Positions 36,001 through 42,000 are shown, counted from the stretch's first letter. The stretch is DNA of 48,226 nt from an uncultured Dehalococcoidia bacterium (GCA_950072105.1 CATMOE010000027.1:1-48226); one strand, 5' to 3'. Numbers are program-made.

Positions 36001-39000
36001 CCGACGTTCCCCTTGGCTCTTCACTTGCCAGGATGATGTCGGAAGAACGTATCCCAACCGTGATGTTTTCTCTTTGCCGCGGCCCATCGCTTTGATCGGA
36101 TGGGGCGGCGTCCAATGGAACTTCAAGTTTTACACCGCCGCCGATGCAGATCATCGTGCCGTCCTGCGGGTTGCGGCTCTCGACCGTCATCGTCAACAGA
36201 TTTTCCACCCCTGCTAATCTGGCGACTCGACCGCGGCCGGGTTGCCCCAACACCTGGAGGGGCTCGCCCTGGTCCACGATCCTTCCGCCGTCGATAACCT
36301 GGACGGAATCACCAAGGGCCAGGGCCTCTTCCCGGTCGTGGGTTACCAGCATTACTGGGATGGGCGAGTCAACGAGCATGGCGCGGAGCTCCCGCCGTAA
36401 TTCTCGGCGTAACTCGTTGTCCAGGGAAGCGAAAGGCTCATCCAACAGCAGGAGTTGGGGGGTAGTGGCCAAGGCCCGGGCCAGTGCGACGCGCTGCTGC
36501 TGTCCACCGGATAGCTGCCAGGTATAGCGGTCTTCCAAGCCTTCCAATCGCAACATTTTCGCCAATCGTTCGACTGTCCCACGTGCGTCCGGTTGCCGGC
36601 GGTCAGGCAACCCATAAGCGATGTTTCCCGCCACGTTCAAATGGGGAAACAAATGATATTGCTGGGTAAGGTAGCCAACCTGTCTCCGGTGTACCGGAAC
36701 CGATATGTGGCCGGCGCTGTCGTACACCACCCGGCCTCCCAACTCCACCCGGCCTTCCTCGGGGCGAACCAATCCAGCTATGCCCCTCAGGGTGGTGGTT
36801 TTACCCGCGCCGGACGGGCCGAAAAGAACCAGCACTTCCCCTTCTTCGATATGCCAATCGGCCTCCAAAGAGAATCCACCAACCCGGCATTTCAGCCAGC
36901 CTATGCTTACGGGCATGGTGGTTTCCAGAGGGATGGGGAAATCCCTCTAAATCCCCCTTTACGAAAGGGGGGCTTGGTTGATGATTTGGCTGCTACGACT
37001 TGCATAGTCATAGGCGGTTTTGCCATTTGGGGCGGGTGGCCAGGCCTAGACCGATGAGTATCGTTACCGACCCGGCTAGCAATAGTACCGACAGGGCTAG
37101 GGCGGAATCCAGACTGGACTCCATGGCGGTCATGATCGCCAGGGGCATTGTTTGGGTTTTCCCCATGAGATTACCGGCAAACATGATGGTGGCGCCGAAC
37201 TCGGATAGAGAGCGCGCCCAAGCCAGGGCGAAGCCGGTCAGGAGAGAAGGGGCAGCCAAAGGCACGGTTAGCCTCCAGAACGTTCCCCAAGGCGATATCC
37301 CCAAGGTTTGAGAGATGTCCTCGTAATCGCGGGCCACCGATTGAAACCCCAATTTGGCCGACCGGATATAGAATGGGGCGGCCACGAATATCTGCGCGAA
37401 GACCACCGCCCCGGTGGTAAAAGGCAGACTAATGCCCAATGTCTCTAAAACGGGCCCCAAAACGCCCTGACGTCCGAAAGCCATCAGCATCGCGACGCCG
37501 GCCACGACCGGCGGCAAAACGATGGGAAGTTCAATGAGACTGTCCACTATCCTAAGTATCCAGGAGGTGTTGCGGGCCAGCAGATAGGCGAACGGCGTCC
37601 CCACCAGTAGGATGATACCCATGGAGATGCCGCTGGTGATCAAGGATAACCGTAATGCGGTCAACGCCAGGTCACTAACCAGACCAGTCAGGAAGTTTCC
37701 GTGCTGGGCCGCCCGGATCAGTAACGCCAGAACCGGCAAGCCGATGAACAGCAGGTAAATGACCGTGGCGGCAGGGCCGAATATCCCGGCTACCGGCAAT
37801 CCGGGAACTCTCCTCAGTCTAGCCAATCTTGCTCCCATCATCGCTGGTTCGAACCGGATGGGCTCTGGATCTGCGCTGGACGCTTGAAACCGTAGCTTTT
37901 CAAGATCGCCTGGGCTCGTTCTCCTAGAAGAAACCGGGCAAATTCCTTCGCCAGTCCGGGGTTAGCCGCGTCGCGTAGAACGGCGATGGGGTATTCGGCC
38001 GCTATGTTTGAACCCTGGGGTATGGACACCACCTGGACTTTTTCCGCCGCATATTCCGTCGCGGCGTCGGTGCGGTAGACGATACCAGCGTCAACTTCTC
38101 CCAAGGCGACTTTTTGGAGGACGCCTCGTACGTTGGGTTCAAGAGTGACTACATTGTCCATGACCCGCGAAGCATATCCGGGTCCCAGCGCTGGGTATTG
38201 GGTCTCCAGGTTTCGGAACAAGGTCAGAGCGTAGCGGCCTGCCGGAACATCTGGCAAGGCCAGGGCCAACTTAACGCCATCACTCGCCAAGTCTTCTAGT
38301 CTTTGTATGTTGACCGCGCTATTTAACCCTGCCAGCGTGCCAGGCAATGGCACAATAACTACCAGACTATTTCCGGCGAAGGGCGCCGGGTTCCCGGCGA
38401 TCAACCCCGCCTCCACCGCCAGGTCCATCTGGCGCCGGTCGGCGGACGCGAAGACGTCGGCCCTGGCGCCGAAATCCAACTGGGTGCGGAGCCTTTGAGA
38501 CCCGGCAAAGTTGAAAGTTACAGATGCGCCCGGGTGCTCTGCTACGAAAGCATCGGCAATCTCAGGGAAAGCGTTGAATAAAGACGCGGCGGCAAAGACC
38601 GTCAGTTCTCTTGAACCGTTTCCGGAAGCCGCATCGGGTTGATAGGCGCATGCTGCCGTGAGCAGCAGCGCCATAACAACGGGCAAGAGACTCACAAAGA
38701 ACCGGAGGCCCGGCGGGAGATGTAGTCCGGGGCGCCCCGGACCCGAAATCTCTCCTCGCTGAAACGTTCTACCCAGTGGGCCAAGGGTTGCAGACTGTCA
38801 GAGAACTGGGGGTCGAATTCCCGCCAATTTCTTGCGTGCTCTTCCGAACGGAAGAGGTTCATGCCGGCTCAACGCCAAGGACGGGTCTCGGGTGCCCCTC
38901 CTACATCGGACCGGGTATAACCGACGATAGTATCCGGTGATGCCGATAGCACCTCACCGTCTCGCATCTCTACCGAGATCGCCTCACCGCAATCCAAACA

Positions 39001-42000
39001 TGGGCAATCGACACGTATAGTCTCTCCGGGAAACAGCCAGCAGACCGCCAGCGATTCGAACCCTCATTGGGCGAACCATTTCTGTTCGCCGCGCACGGTG
39101 ATCCGGTATTGATTGGGGAGGACATTGAACGGAGGAAATGACACCAGATAATCGGTATCCGGATGCAGCCAGGCCGGAATCCCAGTAGCGATCAGGTCGT
39201 GCAGTGTCTGGCGGCCTTCTTCCAAGGTAAGCCCCAAGTCGGCGGCAAGCTCCGTATAGTGCGGGGCCTGGCCGGTTTCCACCAGGCGCGTCATGATGTT
39301 GGAGAATGCTTTGTCCAGCAACGCCAGCTCTGCCATGGGTATCCTCCCAGCGTGTTTATCTTGTTTTGACCAGGCTAGTATTGAGCATATTTAGACTAGA
39401 ACGATGGCAATTGTGATGGCAATTATAAAGTATACTTGCTAATACATCAAGTTAAGTGTACGGTATCCAAATGGCGGCCTTACTTAACCAACTCAAACGA
39501 AACCGGCTTGAGGCCGGGCTTTCCCAGCAGGCGCTGGCCGGTTTGGCAGGAATCAGCCGTCAGGCGTACTCGGCGTTGGAATCGGGCAGCGCCAACCCGT
39601 CGACAGAGGTTGCCCTGCGTCTGGCCCGGTCCTTGAAAACCAGCGTCGACCACCTGTTTTCCTTGCCCGAAGCCGCTCCCCAACAGATGCTGGCCCAGTT
39701 AGTCGGCTCTTCGATCGCCAAAGACACCGCCTCCATCTACAAGCCAGCCACCAGAGTCCAACTGGTGCAGGTAGGTAACAGACTCTTGGCAAGGGCGGTA
39801 TCGGGGACTGGGAGCACCCGTCGATCCCTGATCCAAGCCGAAGGTGTCGCCGTCAATGAACCCGATGAAAGCAACCGGGTGACGGTCCAACCCTTCGAAG
39901 ACCATGAAACCCGGTCGCCAACCTTAGGCTTGCTGGGTTGCGACCCTGCCGGAGCGCTTCTGGAGCCGGGCTTGAATCGGCACGGCATCAACTTGGTATG
40001 GTGGGAGGAAGGGAGTCACCAGGCCTTGTCCGGATTGGCTCGAGGGGAAGCCCATGTGGCGGGTTGTCATCTTCGGGACGAGGACACAGGTGAGTTCAAT
40101 ATCCCCTGGGTCCTGAAGCTGATCCCTTTTCCCTGCACTATGGTCACTTTCGCGGCCTGGCAGCAAGGGTTCATCGTGGCGCCGGGCAACCCTCATGGAA
40201 TACGGAGCGTGGAAGACTTGTCCAGGCCGGAAGTTAGGATCATTAACCGTCAGTCTGGGTCGGGCAGCCGTTCCCTTTTGGACCGGTTATTGCTGCGGGG
40301 AGGAGTACCATCGGCCGCCGTCACCGGCTACAACCGGGAAGCCGGCGGCCATATGTCCGTGGCGTCTACCGTCGCTTCGGGACAAGCCGACGCCGGGGTG
40401 GGAGTGCAGGCCGCCGCCACCGCGCTGGGTTTGGGTTTTGTATCTCTGGAGGAGGAACGGTACGACTTGGTGATTCCCAACCACTTCCTGAACAACAGTG
40501 GTGTTCAGGTGCTGCTCGACCTGCTTCGTCAGCCCGGCCTTCGGCGCCGGGTGGAGACGCTGGGCGGCTATGACGTTTCAGCCATGGGCCTCCCGGTTTC
40601 TCACAGCTGATCAGGCCACTGGGTGATTCTCCTCATATTCATCGACCCAGCCATCGATTTTTCTCCTCCACCTCTTCTTATTCACTTGACTCGGCCAGTT
40701 CACGGGAGTCTAATGTGGCTTCGGGAAGCGGCTTGAGCAATCAGGCTTATGCACATCTCCATCGCCACAGCGTAGATAGCGGGCTCCAAAACGCAAACTT
40801 CCCAAGAGATGAGACGGCGGAATAACCGCCATTTGAGGAGACATAAGTATGGCTCTAGTTCGATGCATCATGGAAATGGGCATGGGTGTTGACGTACATG
40901 GAAGAGACTACACCAACGGTGCGAAACGGGCGGTTTTCGATGCCCTGCACCACAGTAGTCTGGGGTTTCAACGGCTGATCGGAAAGACGGCCGACGACAT
41001 GCAGGTCGAAATCACCATCGGGTCGCCCCAGCCCAGCCAGGTCGACACGGCAGCGGTTGTGGCCACTCTGCCCCACGGCACCGGCAGTTGCAAAGTAGTG
41101 GTGGGTGGTTTGGAGATCCCCAACGAGGCGGGGGATGACGCGATGGTCATCACCAATGCCGCAGTAATCGTACTCTTCGACGACGGGAAGTAATTCACGA
41201 ACCCGCCGGCGGCCGGCACTTTAACGGCCGCCTTGCCAGATTGGTCTGTTGTCTATATCGCCGGGCCTTCCACAACATACCAGCCCCGACAACGTCGGGG
41301 CTGGTAAACAAATCTAATTTTTTGCCGGACACGCCCGGATTCACCGGTAATCCGGAAGCGCCGCACTGAATCCCCAAATACCCAACGGGATCCCCGGTAG
41401 ACCATTAATACATTTGGTGGCGATGCCCGTTGGCAGGTGGGGTCAGCCTCAGTGTTCGGCCGGCGGCCGGTTGTTTAGGTTCTTGGTCTTGGTGGTTTTT
41501 GTTACCGCCTTGATGTTGTTTAACAGGTCGGCCGGATCAACGCTGTGCACGCTCTCTATGTGAGTGCTCATTGTGGCCACGACACCATCCGTGGTGTCAG
41601 CTGTGGCCATGAAACGGCAAGGGTCGCCATTCTCGTCTAAGGCCAGTGACAGCATCCAGTTGCAACGCGCGTACTGCATCGTCATTTGCTAATCCTCCTA
41701 GACATTTTCCGCCAGACCGCTTCGGTAAAACTCATGTGTTCCGGCCGAACGTTCATCGCAGCAGAGATTTCGCCCCAATTATACACATTCCGGCAAGCCT
41801 GACACCAGTTTTTTGGACCAGATCAGAAAGGACATGGACGGACCGGCTATAAAGCGTCTGCTTCGAAGACGAATTTACAATAGTCTTGAGGCTAAATGAC
41901 AAAGCAAGCTAGCCTCAATCTCCATCCTTAATTAGAATCGTACCGTTGTCAGGGCCGCAGCGTCGAAGATTTGTCTAAACGGATATGATTCAGTCCCGTC

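Follow-up and report, generated by a model that had tools for sequence, protein, structure and literature searches.

The three open reading frame fragments on the minus strand between positions 38692 and 39336 form a single gene, which encodes a cytosolic protein with the fold of the organomercurial lyase MerB. Two residues encoded by in-frame UGA codons, Sec91 and Sec156 (U91 and U156), replace both metal-ligand cysteines of MerB. The protein is very likely a genuine selenoprotein with two selenocysteines, and the reading that best explains the data as a whole, a MerB-like action of this protein on an organometal(loid) compound, is on balance probable. The initial annotation of the locus, which proposed one gene, two selenocysteines and membership of the MerB family, is supported on all three points.

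The window analysed comprises 48,226 nucleotides of an uncultured Dehalococcoidia bacterium (GCA_950072105.1, contig CATMOE010000027.1:1-48226). Translation table 11 gives minus-strand open reading frames of 90 aa (39064-39336) and 56 aa (38692-38862) and a 42-aa piece with a TTG start at this locus. Re-reading of the sequence and of the open reading frames confirmed that the 90-aa and 56-aa fragments belong to one frame of 214 aa, in which TGA at 39064-39066 and TGA at 38869-38871 are the only stops between 39336 and 38695. The stop codon of the gene overlaps the GTG start of a modA-like gene (GTGA). The locus is composed of the following features:

35789-36916, minus strand: modC-like ATPase with TOBE domain (domain match)
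37008-37841, minus strand: modB-like permease (domain match)
37838-38695, minus strand: modA-like solute-binding lipoprotein (SBP_bac_11, 187 bits), starting within the stop codon of the selenoprotein gene
38695-39336, minus strand: coding sequence for the 214-aa selenoprotein with the MerB fold (start ATG 39336-39334, terminal TGA 38692-38694)
39342-39348, minus strand: Shine-Dalgarno-like GGGAGGA, 5 nt 5' of the ATG, as read from the sequence
39456-40610, plus strand: regulator with HTH_3 and PBP_like domains, transcribed divergently from the selenoprotein gene

Residues 73-187 of the read-through protein match Pfam PF03243 (MerB) with 62.7 bits (cut-off 27), and a phmmer search against the PDB returned MerB2 (5c17) as the sole match, with U91 placed on the cysteine of FAWC and U156 on the cysteine of GTCKQ. 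The scores against the NCBIfam models are far below the respective cut-offs, both for MerB (NF009710, 33.7 versus 193 bits; NF033555, 26.8 versus 200 bits) and for SaoL (NF040728, 34 versus 140 bits). The Pfam score, the weak NCBIfam matches and the alignment to 5c17 given in the initial annotation were thereby all reproduced. The same picture holds for all 93 members scanned: matches to NF009710 and NF033555 are weak and below cut-off (best E-values 7e-13 and 2.3e-11), and NF040728 is matched weakly by 93 of 93 (best E-value 4.9e-13). An AlphaFold model calculated from the 93-sequence alignment reached a pLDDT of 96.1, compared with 89.6 before, and a pTM of 0.90. All 11 Foldseek matches in the PDB with E<=0.001 are MerB or MerB2 entries (TM 0.51-0.67), in agreement with the fold assigned earlier.

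Counting from chain residue 81 in a profile alignment to MerB of R831b (1s6l/3f0o) showed that the MerB numbering given in the initial annotation for Cys96, Cys159 and Asp99 is right. The residues concerned are:

38869-38871, minus strand: UGA 2, Sec156, aligned to MerB Cys159
38989-38991, minus strand: codon of Cys116, second cysteine of the CLDC motif
38998-39000, minus strand: TGT, Cys113, aligned to MerB Cys117, first cysteine of the CLDC motif
39055-39057, minus strand: GAA, Glu94, in the position of the MerB proton donor Asp99
39064-39066, minus strand: UGA 1, Sec91, aligned to MerB Cys96

Cys96, Asp99, Cys117 and Cys159 are named as signature residues of MerB in the available text of PMC8261052, and the same four are given in that of Haft & Gwadz 2022 (bioRxiv 10.1101/2022.07.06.499078). 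The window protein thus combines the Pfam domain, the fold and the Cys117 equivalent of MerB with selenocysteine at both ligand positions and glutamate in place of Asp99. Since selenocysteine is a chemical analogue of cysteine, the likeness of mechanism to MerB stands despite the exchange of Cys96 and Cys159. Moreover, conservation extends over the whole MerB core and takes in the F-x-S stretch that follows site 2.

The structures of R831b MerB (1S6L, 3F0O and 3F0P; EC 4.99.1.2) are matched with E-values of 1.6e-10 to 3.2e-07 and TM values of 0.51-0.62. Both proteins are cytosolic, comprise about 210 aa with a helical N-terminal domain, and place the metal ligands, the acid and the buried cysteine identically. 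However, sequence identity is 14-18%, and besides the exchanges at both ligand cysteines and Asp99 the window protein possesses an extra cysteine, resulting in a CxxC motif (residues 113-116), and lacks an equivalent of Cys160. The closest solved structure is MerB2 (5C17; profile E-value 8e-14, 54.8 bits; TM 0.67), both ligand positions of which align with U91 and U156. Similarity is still low (21% identity) and, in contrast to the window protein, MerB2 is a cysteine enzyme. MerB2 of the Bacillus-type mer system is set in a mer operon, whereas none is seen at the window locus.

Support for selenocysteine comes from the distribution of the two TGA codons. Among 401 genomes of the same order, 30 from 16 genera contain a long match, and each of the 31 long matches carries exactly two TGA codons in the same two columns, which extends a pattern previously noted in 8 loci and is far beyond chance. 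Within the order loci every one of the 60 internal stops is TGA, whereas 24 of the 30 terminal stops are TAG or TAA. The window and 5 of the 29 other extracted order loci (6/30 overall) end with TGA, which implies that TGA still serves as a stop in these genomes. U91, C113 and U156 are invariant (30/30), as claimed earlier; Glu94, for which the same had been stated, is nearly so (28/30, with valine in L043 and aspartate in L045).

A second set of 80 loci from other assemblies and other phyla shows the same arrangement. At site 1, 64 loci have TGA and 16 have TGC or TGT, with TGG in none, and site 2 is TGA in 79, the exception being L122, which has GTA here and an extra TGA elsewhere. C113 is present in 80/80, E94 in 78/80 and C116, replaced by glycine in L114, L115, L120 and L125, in 76/80. 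Over both sets, aspartate occupies the Glu94 column only in L045 and L123. From several phyla, 96 distinct relatives were collected, 84 of which are Sec/Sec and 12 Cys/Sec; together with the Cys/Cys relatives P0055, P0057, P0122, P0125 and P0127, cysteine homologues, a mark of bacterial selenoproteins, are found at the UGA columns of both sites.

The fragments that gene callers put out would also be explained by decay into a pseudogene, by three separate small genes or by another genetic code in which TGA is read as Trp or Gly. At both sites some JGI calls show W, G stands at site 1 of one NCBI protein (P0004), and decaying copies with an extra TGA do occur. The JGI proteins with W derive from contigs of about 1-2 kb and probably represent table-4 calls; the copies with an extra TGA, L122 and L079, are rare. 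This explanation is contradicted by stops that are TGA without exception and always fall on the two catalytic columns, both in all 31 long matches and across phyla, by alternatives at both columns that are Cys codons and never TGG, by the terminal stops, and by the coding pattern and hairpin constraint described below. It is highly improbable.

Each UGA is followed by a hairpin:

39036-39052, minus strand: SECIS-like hairpin 1, GCUGGC / loop GGUCU / GCUGGC
38839-38856, minus strand: SECIS-like hairpin 2, CUCUUCC / loop GUUC / GGAAGAG

Hairpin 1 begins 14 nt after the U of UGA 1 and hairpin 2 begins 15 nt after the U of UGA 2. The distances and the 7-bp stem of hairpin 2 correspond to the initial annotation, which had assigned 7 bp to both; at site 1, however, the core stem has 6 bp (7 in some sequences). 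Both hairpins are held by selection at the RNA level. In hairpin 1, 73 of the 83 Sec forms, but just 3 of the 11 Cys forms, have standard pairing at all six positions, and codon 99 is NGC in 83/83 Sec forms, whatever residue (C, R, S or G) is coded. In hairpin 2, all seven pairs are standard in 85/94 sequences, and the loop is GGUC in 90/94 and GUUC, as in the window, in 4/94. Synonymous codons of the site-2 stem are nearly fixed (CTC 80/80, TTC 96/96, CGG 0.94, TCG 0.99, GAA 0.98), and the synonymous-diversity ratio of codons 161-165 is 0-0.15 versus a gene median of 0.97. G-U is found in the apical loop of both hairpins and, judged from sequence, each would provide the stem-loop for SelB-dependent recoding of UGA. 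Folding energies compared with synonymous resampling over the full segment folded at each site gave a weak result, with a mean z of -0.72 for Sec and -0.70 for Cys forms at site 1 and of -1.27 at site 2. None of the Rfam SECIS models matched.

The genome encodes the machinery for selenocysteine insertion, comprising tRNA-Sec, SelA (550.1 bits), SelB (351.6 bits) and SelD (385.3 bits). SelD itself contains one TGA, and the hairpin after this codon likewise displays GGU in the apical loop. One carrier genome, G311 (91% complete), yielded no SelB match. Substitutions decrease from codon position 3 over position 1 to position 2 in all three segments of the gene, indicating that coding constraint persists past both TGAs, and all 5 strain variants listed for the stretch separating the TGAs affect third codon positions. 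Where the initial annotation had noted no expression data, contigs from RNA libraries of three studies now cover the gene and cross the TGAs, one contig of 478 nt spanning both; such libraries can also contain DNA.

The protein belongs to a large family, mostly stand-alone and mainly Sec/Sec, whose genes are split into fragments in public annotation. Members occur in Dehalococcoidia (including genomes titled SAR202), Desulfobacterota, other 'Deltaproteobacteria', Acidimicrobiia, Binatia, Acidobacteriota, Nitrospinota and Poribacteria. Adjacency to modABC had been described as absent from the 7 other loci. It is not confined to the window: L047, L048, L050 and L052, the nearest relatives found in other assemblies, have it as well and share the HTH_3/PBP_like regulator at the same position, but it occurs at no further locus. 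No gene cluster is conserved within +/-4 ORFs of the 80 loci, and no mer gene was seen among 150 flanking ORFs scanned from these loci. MerA scores above cut-off in 0 of the 30 carriers of the order versus 14 of the 371 other genomes; the best MerA-like score in the genome of the window is 387 bits, below the cut-off of 454. A mer operon or MerA context, however, does not strictly define MerB: in the available text of PMC8261052, MerA is missing from slightly over half of the merB-carrying genomes.

Flavin and redox enzymes are frequent among the flanking ORFs, including Oxidored_FMN with Pyr_redox_2 upstream in L058, L060, L063 and L078, FAD_binding_2 downstream in L053, L054 and L056, nitroreductases near the gene at L114, L119 and L120, and a Pyr_redox_2 reductase at L116. 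Together with the nearly invariant CxxC (C113, C116), which is absent from MerB, these neighbours would suit a redox protein that has left metal chemistry, in which U91 and U156 form a diselenide or selenenylsulfide centre, perhaps with C113-x-x-C116, acting on an organic or a sulfur/selenium substrate. Prokaryotic selenoproteins are indeed mostly thought to be redox proteins, according to the available text of PMC9312934. Yet neighbours are not conserved family-wide, an enoyl-CoA hydratase in 9/80 loci being the largest BLAST cluster, C116 is glycine in four loci, and both the fold and the placement of the ligands correspond to a metal site, which leaves a redox function quite unlikely.

In a MerB-like reaction on an organometal(loid) compound, for which methylmercury or another organomercurial is the most plausible candidate, the two selenolates would bind the metal, Glu94 would protonate the leaving carbon, and the metal would remain on the Se-Se site until handed to an acceptor other than MerA. 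A metal-carbon lyase acting by bond protonolysis on an organomercurial such as methylmercury is plausible, if somewhat short of an even chance. According to the available text of PMC11639659, selones are faster than their sulfur analogues at cleaving Hg-C bonds. Counting against a lyase are the missing mer context, the exchange of the Asp99 signature residue for Glu and the NCBIfam MerB scores far below cut-off. Moreover, a bis-selenolate would be expected to grip Hg(II) very tightly, so that turnover would need another acceptor.

Poor release of mercury would suit a binder without turnover, that is, a scavenger or chaperone holding a soft metal(loid) (Hg(II), Cu, Ag, Cd or similar) between the selenolates. 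Both selenocysteines occupy metal-ligand positions of MerB, a MerA partner is missing from the carriers, and, according to the available text of Haft & Gwadz, heavy metals other than mercury are bound by MerB, and a single exchange in its metal site turns it into a copper-binding protein. However, two selenocysteines are costly for stoichiometric binding, the whole MerB core is conserved, and an acid is kept at the Asp99 position, which fits catalysis better than plain binding. A pure binder is considered unlikely, although it deserves more weight than a redox function.

If the MerB-like lyase acts on organomercurials, the family may represent a widespread, overlooked selenium-dependent methylmercury (organomercurial) demethylase working without MerA in marine and subsurface bacteria, with SAR202-type Dehalococcoidia, Acidimicrobiia, Desulfobacterota and Binatia as hosts. 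This proposal is tentative and should be regarded as possible rather than probable. Surveys of merB would then have missed the family on account of fragmented gene calls and of Glu in place of Asp99. The affinity of a bis-selenolate would suit the very low methylmercury of natural waters, and the family would link the microbial selenium and mercury cycles.

SaoL is the only MerB-like selenoprotein found in print, and the two-selenocysteine family is distinct from it. The available text of Haft & Gwadz 2022 describes SaoL (NF040728) as a MerB-superfamily selenoprotein of the SAO system with database entries cut at the UGA, and the accessible parts of the 2022 and 2026 selenoproteome reviews give it, with one Sec, as the sole MerB-like selenoprotein. 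SaoL shares selenocysteine at the MerB Cys159 position with the window protein. According to Haft & Gwadz, its single selenocysteine lies in a CU dipeptide and Cys99/Asp102, equivalent to Cys96/Asp99 of MerB, are kept, whereas in the window protein site 2 reads R-U-A, site 1 is U and the acid is Glu. SaoL marks a nine-gene SAO locus in anaerobes, while the family studied here lacks a conserved neighbourhood; the neighbours in the window are modABC and the HTH_3-PBP_like regulator, sao families not having been searched by HMM. On account of the sub-threshold score, the motif and the neighbourhood, identity with SaoL was rejected.

Similarity beyond the selenoproteins extends to MerB-like proteins of a cysteine type with a C-x-x-E motif (such as P0169, P0178, P0212, P0232 and P0249), which resemble the family in fold, Glu spacing and length. 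In contrast to the window protein they carry cysteine at both sites, and they are separated by long branches (profile E-values between 1e-20 and 1e-29). In a quick tree, rooted at the midpoint only, they form the sister group of the family with 99% SH-aLRT support.

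The gene studied lies in a single minus-strand frame, which runs from an ATG at 39336 to a TGA at 38692–38694 and is interrupted only by two further TGA codons. As the initial annotation had reported, translation with table 11 breaks this frame into fragments of 90 and 56 aa; a third piece of 42 aa, with a TTG start, was found in the same frame.

39064–39336, minus strand: 90-aa table-11 fragment
39064–39066, minus strand: in-frame TGA of site 1, read as U91
38869–38871, minus strand: in-frame TGA of site 2, read as U156
38692–38862, minus strand: 56-aa table-11 fragment
5 nt upstream of the ATG, minus strand: GGGAGGA, read from sequence

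Read-through of both TGA codons in a MerB-like gene, the central claim of that annotation, was confirmed, and the window gene is very probably a real two-Sec selenoprotein. Within the order of the window, 34 of 401 genomes gave any match, and 30 genomes from 16 genera hold 31 long matches with identities of 47–67%, every one of which contains exactly two TGA codons and no other stop. Four weak matches (E 1.8e-4 to 9.7e-4) were rejected as members of the two-Sec family. All 30 genes extracted from the order start with an ATG at the aligned place and carry U at the same two columns. The invariance previously claimed for four residues holds for U91, C113 and U156 (30/30), but not for E94, which is present in 28 of the 30 genes.

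A pattern scan across phyla, with one genome per species from a 185,579-species collection, gave an estimated 1300 or so stored stretches with the family, and 562 of the 598 stretches scanned proved to be relatives. Of these 562, the 80 best belong to Dehalococcoidia (including records titled SAR202), 'Deltaproteobacteria', Desulfobacterales, Syntrophobacterales, Acidimicrobiia, Binatia, Acidobacteriota, Poribacteria and Nitrospinaceae. Once two aberrant copies, three long forms and all duplicates had been set aside, 96 distinct genes remained, 84 of them Sec/Sec and 12 Cys/Sec (residues at site 1/site 2). In locus L122 (6001–6708), site 2 is GTA (Val) and residue 23 is an additional TGA, so that the gene looks like a decaying copy; in L079 (6001–6681) an extra TGA occupies residue 62, which is W or Y in the others. 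For both loci, either gene decay or an assembly error may be the cause. In three Cys/Sec members of 381 aa from Acidimicrobiales/Microthrixaceae records (L114, L115 and L120, about 6001–7140 each), the C-terminus is extended by about 150 conserved residues that other members lack, and Gly stands in place of C116.

Against Pfam MerB, the 214-aa read-through product scores 62.7 bits (cut 27), with residues 73–187 covered by the match. NCBIfam MerB-type models match it weakly, with scores of 33.7 versus 193, 34 versus 140 (SaoL, the MerB-like lyase of the SAO system) and 26.8 versus 200. AlphaFold2, run on a 93-sequence alignment (A2), gave a model with a mean pLDDT of 96.1 and a pTM of 0.90. In a Foldseek search against the PDB, the 11 matches with E<=0.001 are without exception MerB or MerB2 entries (TM 0.51–0.67, identity 14–21%), followed by the next match at E 0.38. 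Searched against PDB sequences, the A2 profile finds MerB2 5c17 at E 8e-14 and R831b MerB at E 1.6e-05 to 9.8e-05. Residues were mapped onto R831b MerB in the A2 profile alignment, counted from chain residue 81.

Active-site positions, their counterparts in R831b MerB (profile alignment) and their state in the best 80 of 562 loci
U91: Cys96; codon TGA in 64, TGC/TGT in 16, TGG in 0
E94: Asp99; Glu in 78/80
C113: Cys117; Cys in 80/80
U156: Cys159; codon TGA in 79/80, counting L104 and L116 as realigned; exception L122

PMC8261052 uses Cys96, Asp99, Cys117 and Cys159 as signature residues in its definition of MerB, and Haft & Gwadz 2022 places Cys96, Asp99 and Cys159 in the active site. The comparison shows a protein of the MerB fold in which Sec occupies both ligand positions and the proton-donor position holds a carboxylate. 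The interpretation first put forward, namely a MerB-family protein with Sec at both catalytic Cys places, is supported. No second MerB-family gene was found in the genome of the window.

The pattern of nucleotide change indicates that translation runs on past both UGAs. Pairwise differences among all 96 genes amount to 0.32, 0.26 and 0.61 at codon positions 1, 2 and 3 before U91, to 0.37, 0.28 and 0.62 in the segment between the UGAs, and to 0.39, 0.35 and 0.54 after U156; the same order (position 3 > 1 > 2) is seen among the 16 closest relatives. Among the variants listed from public marine runs, the strain variants between the TGAs (38884, 38890, 38893, 38938 and 38980) all fall on third codon positions.

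The genome of the window (G000; 4.08 Mb, 164 contigs, 92% complete) contains a tRNA-Sec as well as SelB (351.6 bits) and SelA (550.1 bits), both above cut-off, and a SelD (385.3 bits) with one in-frame TGA of its own. That 29 of the 30 carriers of the two-Sec gene have SelB says little, since 370 of the 401 order genomes have a SelB match above cut-off. The gene's own terminator is TGA in the window and in five of the 29 other order loci extracted, so TGA still serves as a stop in these genomes; the terminator is TAG or TAA in 24/30, whereas all 60 internal stops in the 30 order loci are TGA. The SelD gene (C60:2148-3071, plus strand) has its TGA at C60:2178 within the motif HCAG-U-AGK, followed by a hairpin GGACCUG/CAGGUCC with a GGU apical loop, which is situated somewhat further downstream than in the two-Sec gene.

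Each UGA of the two-Sec gene is followed by a SECIS-like hairpin. As a whole-window folding-energy test against synonymous resampling gave only a weak signal (z -0.7 at site 1, equal in Sec and Cys forms, and z -1.27 at site 2), per-codon and per-pair counts were used in its place. At site 2, the UGA is followed after 12 nt by CUCUUCC-GGUC-GGAAGAG. Of 94 sequences, 90 have a GGUC loop and 4 have GUUC, the form present in the window, and all seven stem pairs are standard in 85/94. The stem codons are nearly fixed among synonyms (CTC in 80/80 Leu, TTC in 96/96, CGG 0.94, TCG 0.99, GAA 0.98), with a synonymous-diversity ratio of 0–0.15 versus a median of 0.97 for the remaining gene, and synonymous constraint over codons 157–167 has a Mann-Whitney p of 0.002. 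At site 1, the UGA is followed after 11 nt by GCUGGC-NGUNN-GCUGGC. Codon 96 is CTG or CTA in all 83 Sec forms, and codon 99 is always NGC in these forms, whether it encodes C, R, S or G. Six standard pairs are present in 73 of the 83 Sec forms, whereas only 3 of 11 Cys forms keep all pairs and codons 96 and 99 drift, so preservation of the first hairpin is confined to genes that retain the UGA. The short mRNA combines two independent SECIS-like elements, one of which visibly decays upon reversion of UGA to a Cys codon. An Rfam scan of 38600–39450 at E<=10 returned two chance-level matches and no SECIS family.

The stretch is present in marine metagenomes of many studies and in six metatranscriptome runs. 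The two-Sec gene is covered by contigs of three RNA libraries, which come from three studies, and one contig of 478 nt (38833–39310) spans both TGAs; neither TGA is altered among the differences listed for these contigs. As they are contigs rather than reads, and as RNA libraries may contain DNA, this cover is support and not proof. Positions 39412–39499 have no RNA-library cover in these contigs, at most a weak hint at a transcript boundary. Many contigs of other organisms align only to about 40 nt within 38824–38884, where UGA 2 and hairpin 2 are located, which fits the extreme nucleotide conservation of this stretch. The DNA run and two of the three RNA libraries show a peak of summed contig depth at 38840–38927, and contigs of X14 and X15 have loose ends at 38824–38884, around UGA 2 and its hairpin.

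True Cys/Cys relatives were found among public proteins (P0055, P0057, P0122, P0125 and P0127), and a more distant Cys-type clade likewise has C-x-x-E. A quick maximum-likelihood tree was rooted at the midpoint, its outgroup consisting of Cys-type C-x-x-E relatives only, without SaoL or R831b MerB. In this midpoint-rooted tree the C-x-x-E Cys forms lie outside the Sec/Sec clade with 99% support, and Cys/Sec and Cys/Cys forms are nested within it at three or more places each, suggesting that Sec/Sec is the older state of the clade. Replacement of both catalytic Cys of an organometal lyase by Sec represents an unusual natural experiment, and the nested Cys-containing relatives provide a built-in comparison of Sec with Cys.

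According to Haft & Gwadz 2022, SaoL marks a nine-gene SAO locus in anaerobes; its single Sec belongs to a CU motif at the position of Cys159, and positions 96 and 99 remain Cys and Asp. In the prokaryotic selenoproteome reviews of 2022 and 2026, SaoL, with one Sec, is the sole MerB-family entry, and no other MerB-family selenoprotein was found in print, supplements and subscription-only papers aside. Nor is there an NCBIfam model covering the two-Sec family, 93 of 93 members matching only three MerB-type models, and weakly. The two-Sec family is therefore regarded as a second MerB-superfamily selenoprotein family, distinct from SaoL. It is the first found with Sec at both catalytic positions, although an earlier mention in supplements or subscription-only papers is possible.

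In public protein sets the family appears as pieces of about 90 aa and, for Cys/Sec forms cut at the second UGA, as 155-aa proteins named 'organomercurial lyase' or 'hypothetical protein'. By hand count, about 44 of the best 150 representatives end at profile position 89–90 and about 12 at 153–155. Several JGI proteins, among them P0002, P0003, P0005 and P0007 (226–272 aa, contigs of about 1–2 kb), show W in each of the two Sec columns, presumably because the genes were called with a TGA=Trp table; such entries hide the Sec sites in protein databases. A truncated NCBI protein (P0004, 155 aa) has Gly at the site-1 column (FAQGGFEAL), either from a real GGN codon or from a call under a TGA=Gly table. 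Correction of such fragment and wrong-code records would change gene counts in many MAGs.

In MerB, as outlined in PMC4525700 and PMC8261052, mercury is bound by two Cys, the carbon is protonated by Asp99, and Hg(II) is kept until handover. By analogy, an organometal compound would be held through its metal by the selenolates of U91 and U156, and Glu94 would cleave the metal-carbon bond; Hg-C cleavage is faster with selones than with sulfur analogues (PMC11639659). An organomercurial-type lyase is a tentative reading, somewhat short of even odds. In one rival reading the protein acts as a stoichiometric metal scavenger or chaperone; in a second, it is a redox protein that forms a diselenide and makes use of the additional CxxC. 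If the protein is a lyase and its substrate methylmercury, the two-Sec family would be a candidate for demethylation in oceans and sediments, environments with little canonical merB.

Genomic context was compared over +/-4 ORFs of the 80 loci, and no neighbour conserved across the family was found. The largest neighbour cluster, enoyl-CoA hydratase, covers nine of the 80 loci. Recurrent neighbours are bound to subclades: OYE-like flavin reductases and radical SAM proteins at four loci each, FAD_binding_2 proteins and nitroreductases at three each. For the ABC_tran+TOBE proteins near L072 and L096, the general similarity of ABC ATPases is probably the sole reason for their clustering. No mer genes occur among 150 flanking ORFs. 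MerA is above cut-off in 14 of the 401 order genomes, none of which carries the two-Sec gene, and the best MerA-like score in G000 is below cut-off. HgcA gave no match in G000 or the 401 order genomes and likewise none in control genomes, so its absence is not shown. One MerA match above cut-off in the order (G087:C4:3165-4481, minus strand, 457.9 bits) has one in-frame TGA, which could mean either a mercuric reductase with Sec or a gene that is broken.

In the window, the two-Sec gene is the first in a string with modA, modB and modC, its stop overlapping the modA start, and is flanked by a divergent regulator.

39456–40610, plus strand: HTH_3-PBP_like regulator, divergent from the two-Sec gene

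The same regulator upstream and mod-type genes downstream are found in the closest relatives (L047, L048, L050 and L052; 72–74% identity), of which L048, L050 and L052 are near-copies of one another. In these three, the ORF directly after the selenoprotein gene, in the expected place of modA, encodes 139–140 aa without a Pfam match. A block syntenic with L048 and L052 comprises the regulator, modABC and the treble-clef zinc-finger protein zf_Tbcl at 35018–35329 (window 35018–36916, minus strand, and 39456–40610, plus strand). Elsewhere in the window, a string at 30968–34752 (minus strand) encodes a UbiD-like decarboxylase, a UbiA prenyltransferase, a UbiX-like flavoprotein and a UbiE methyltransferase, and RF-1 and PrmC are located at 27302–29343.
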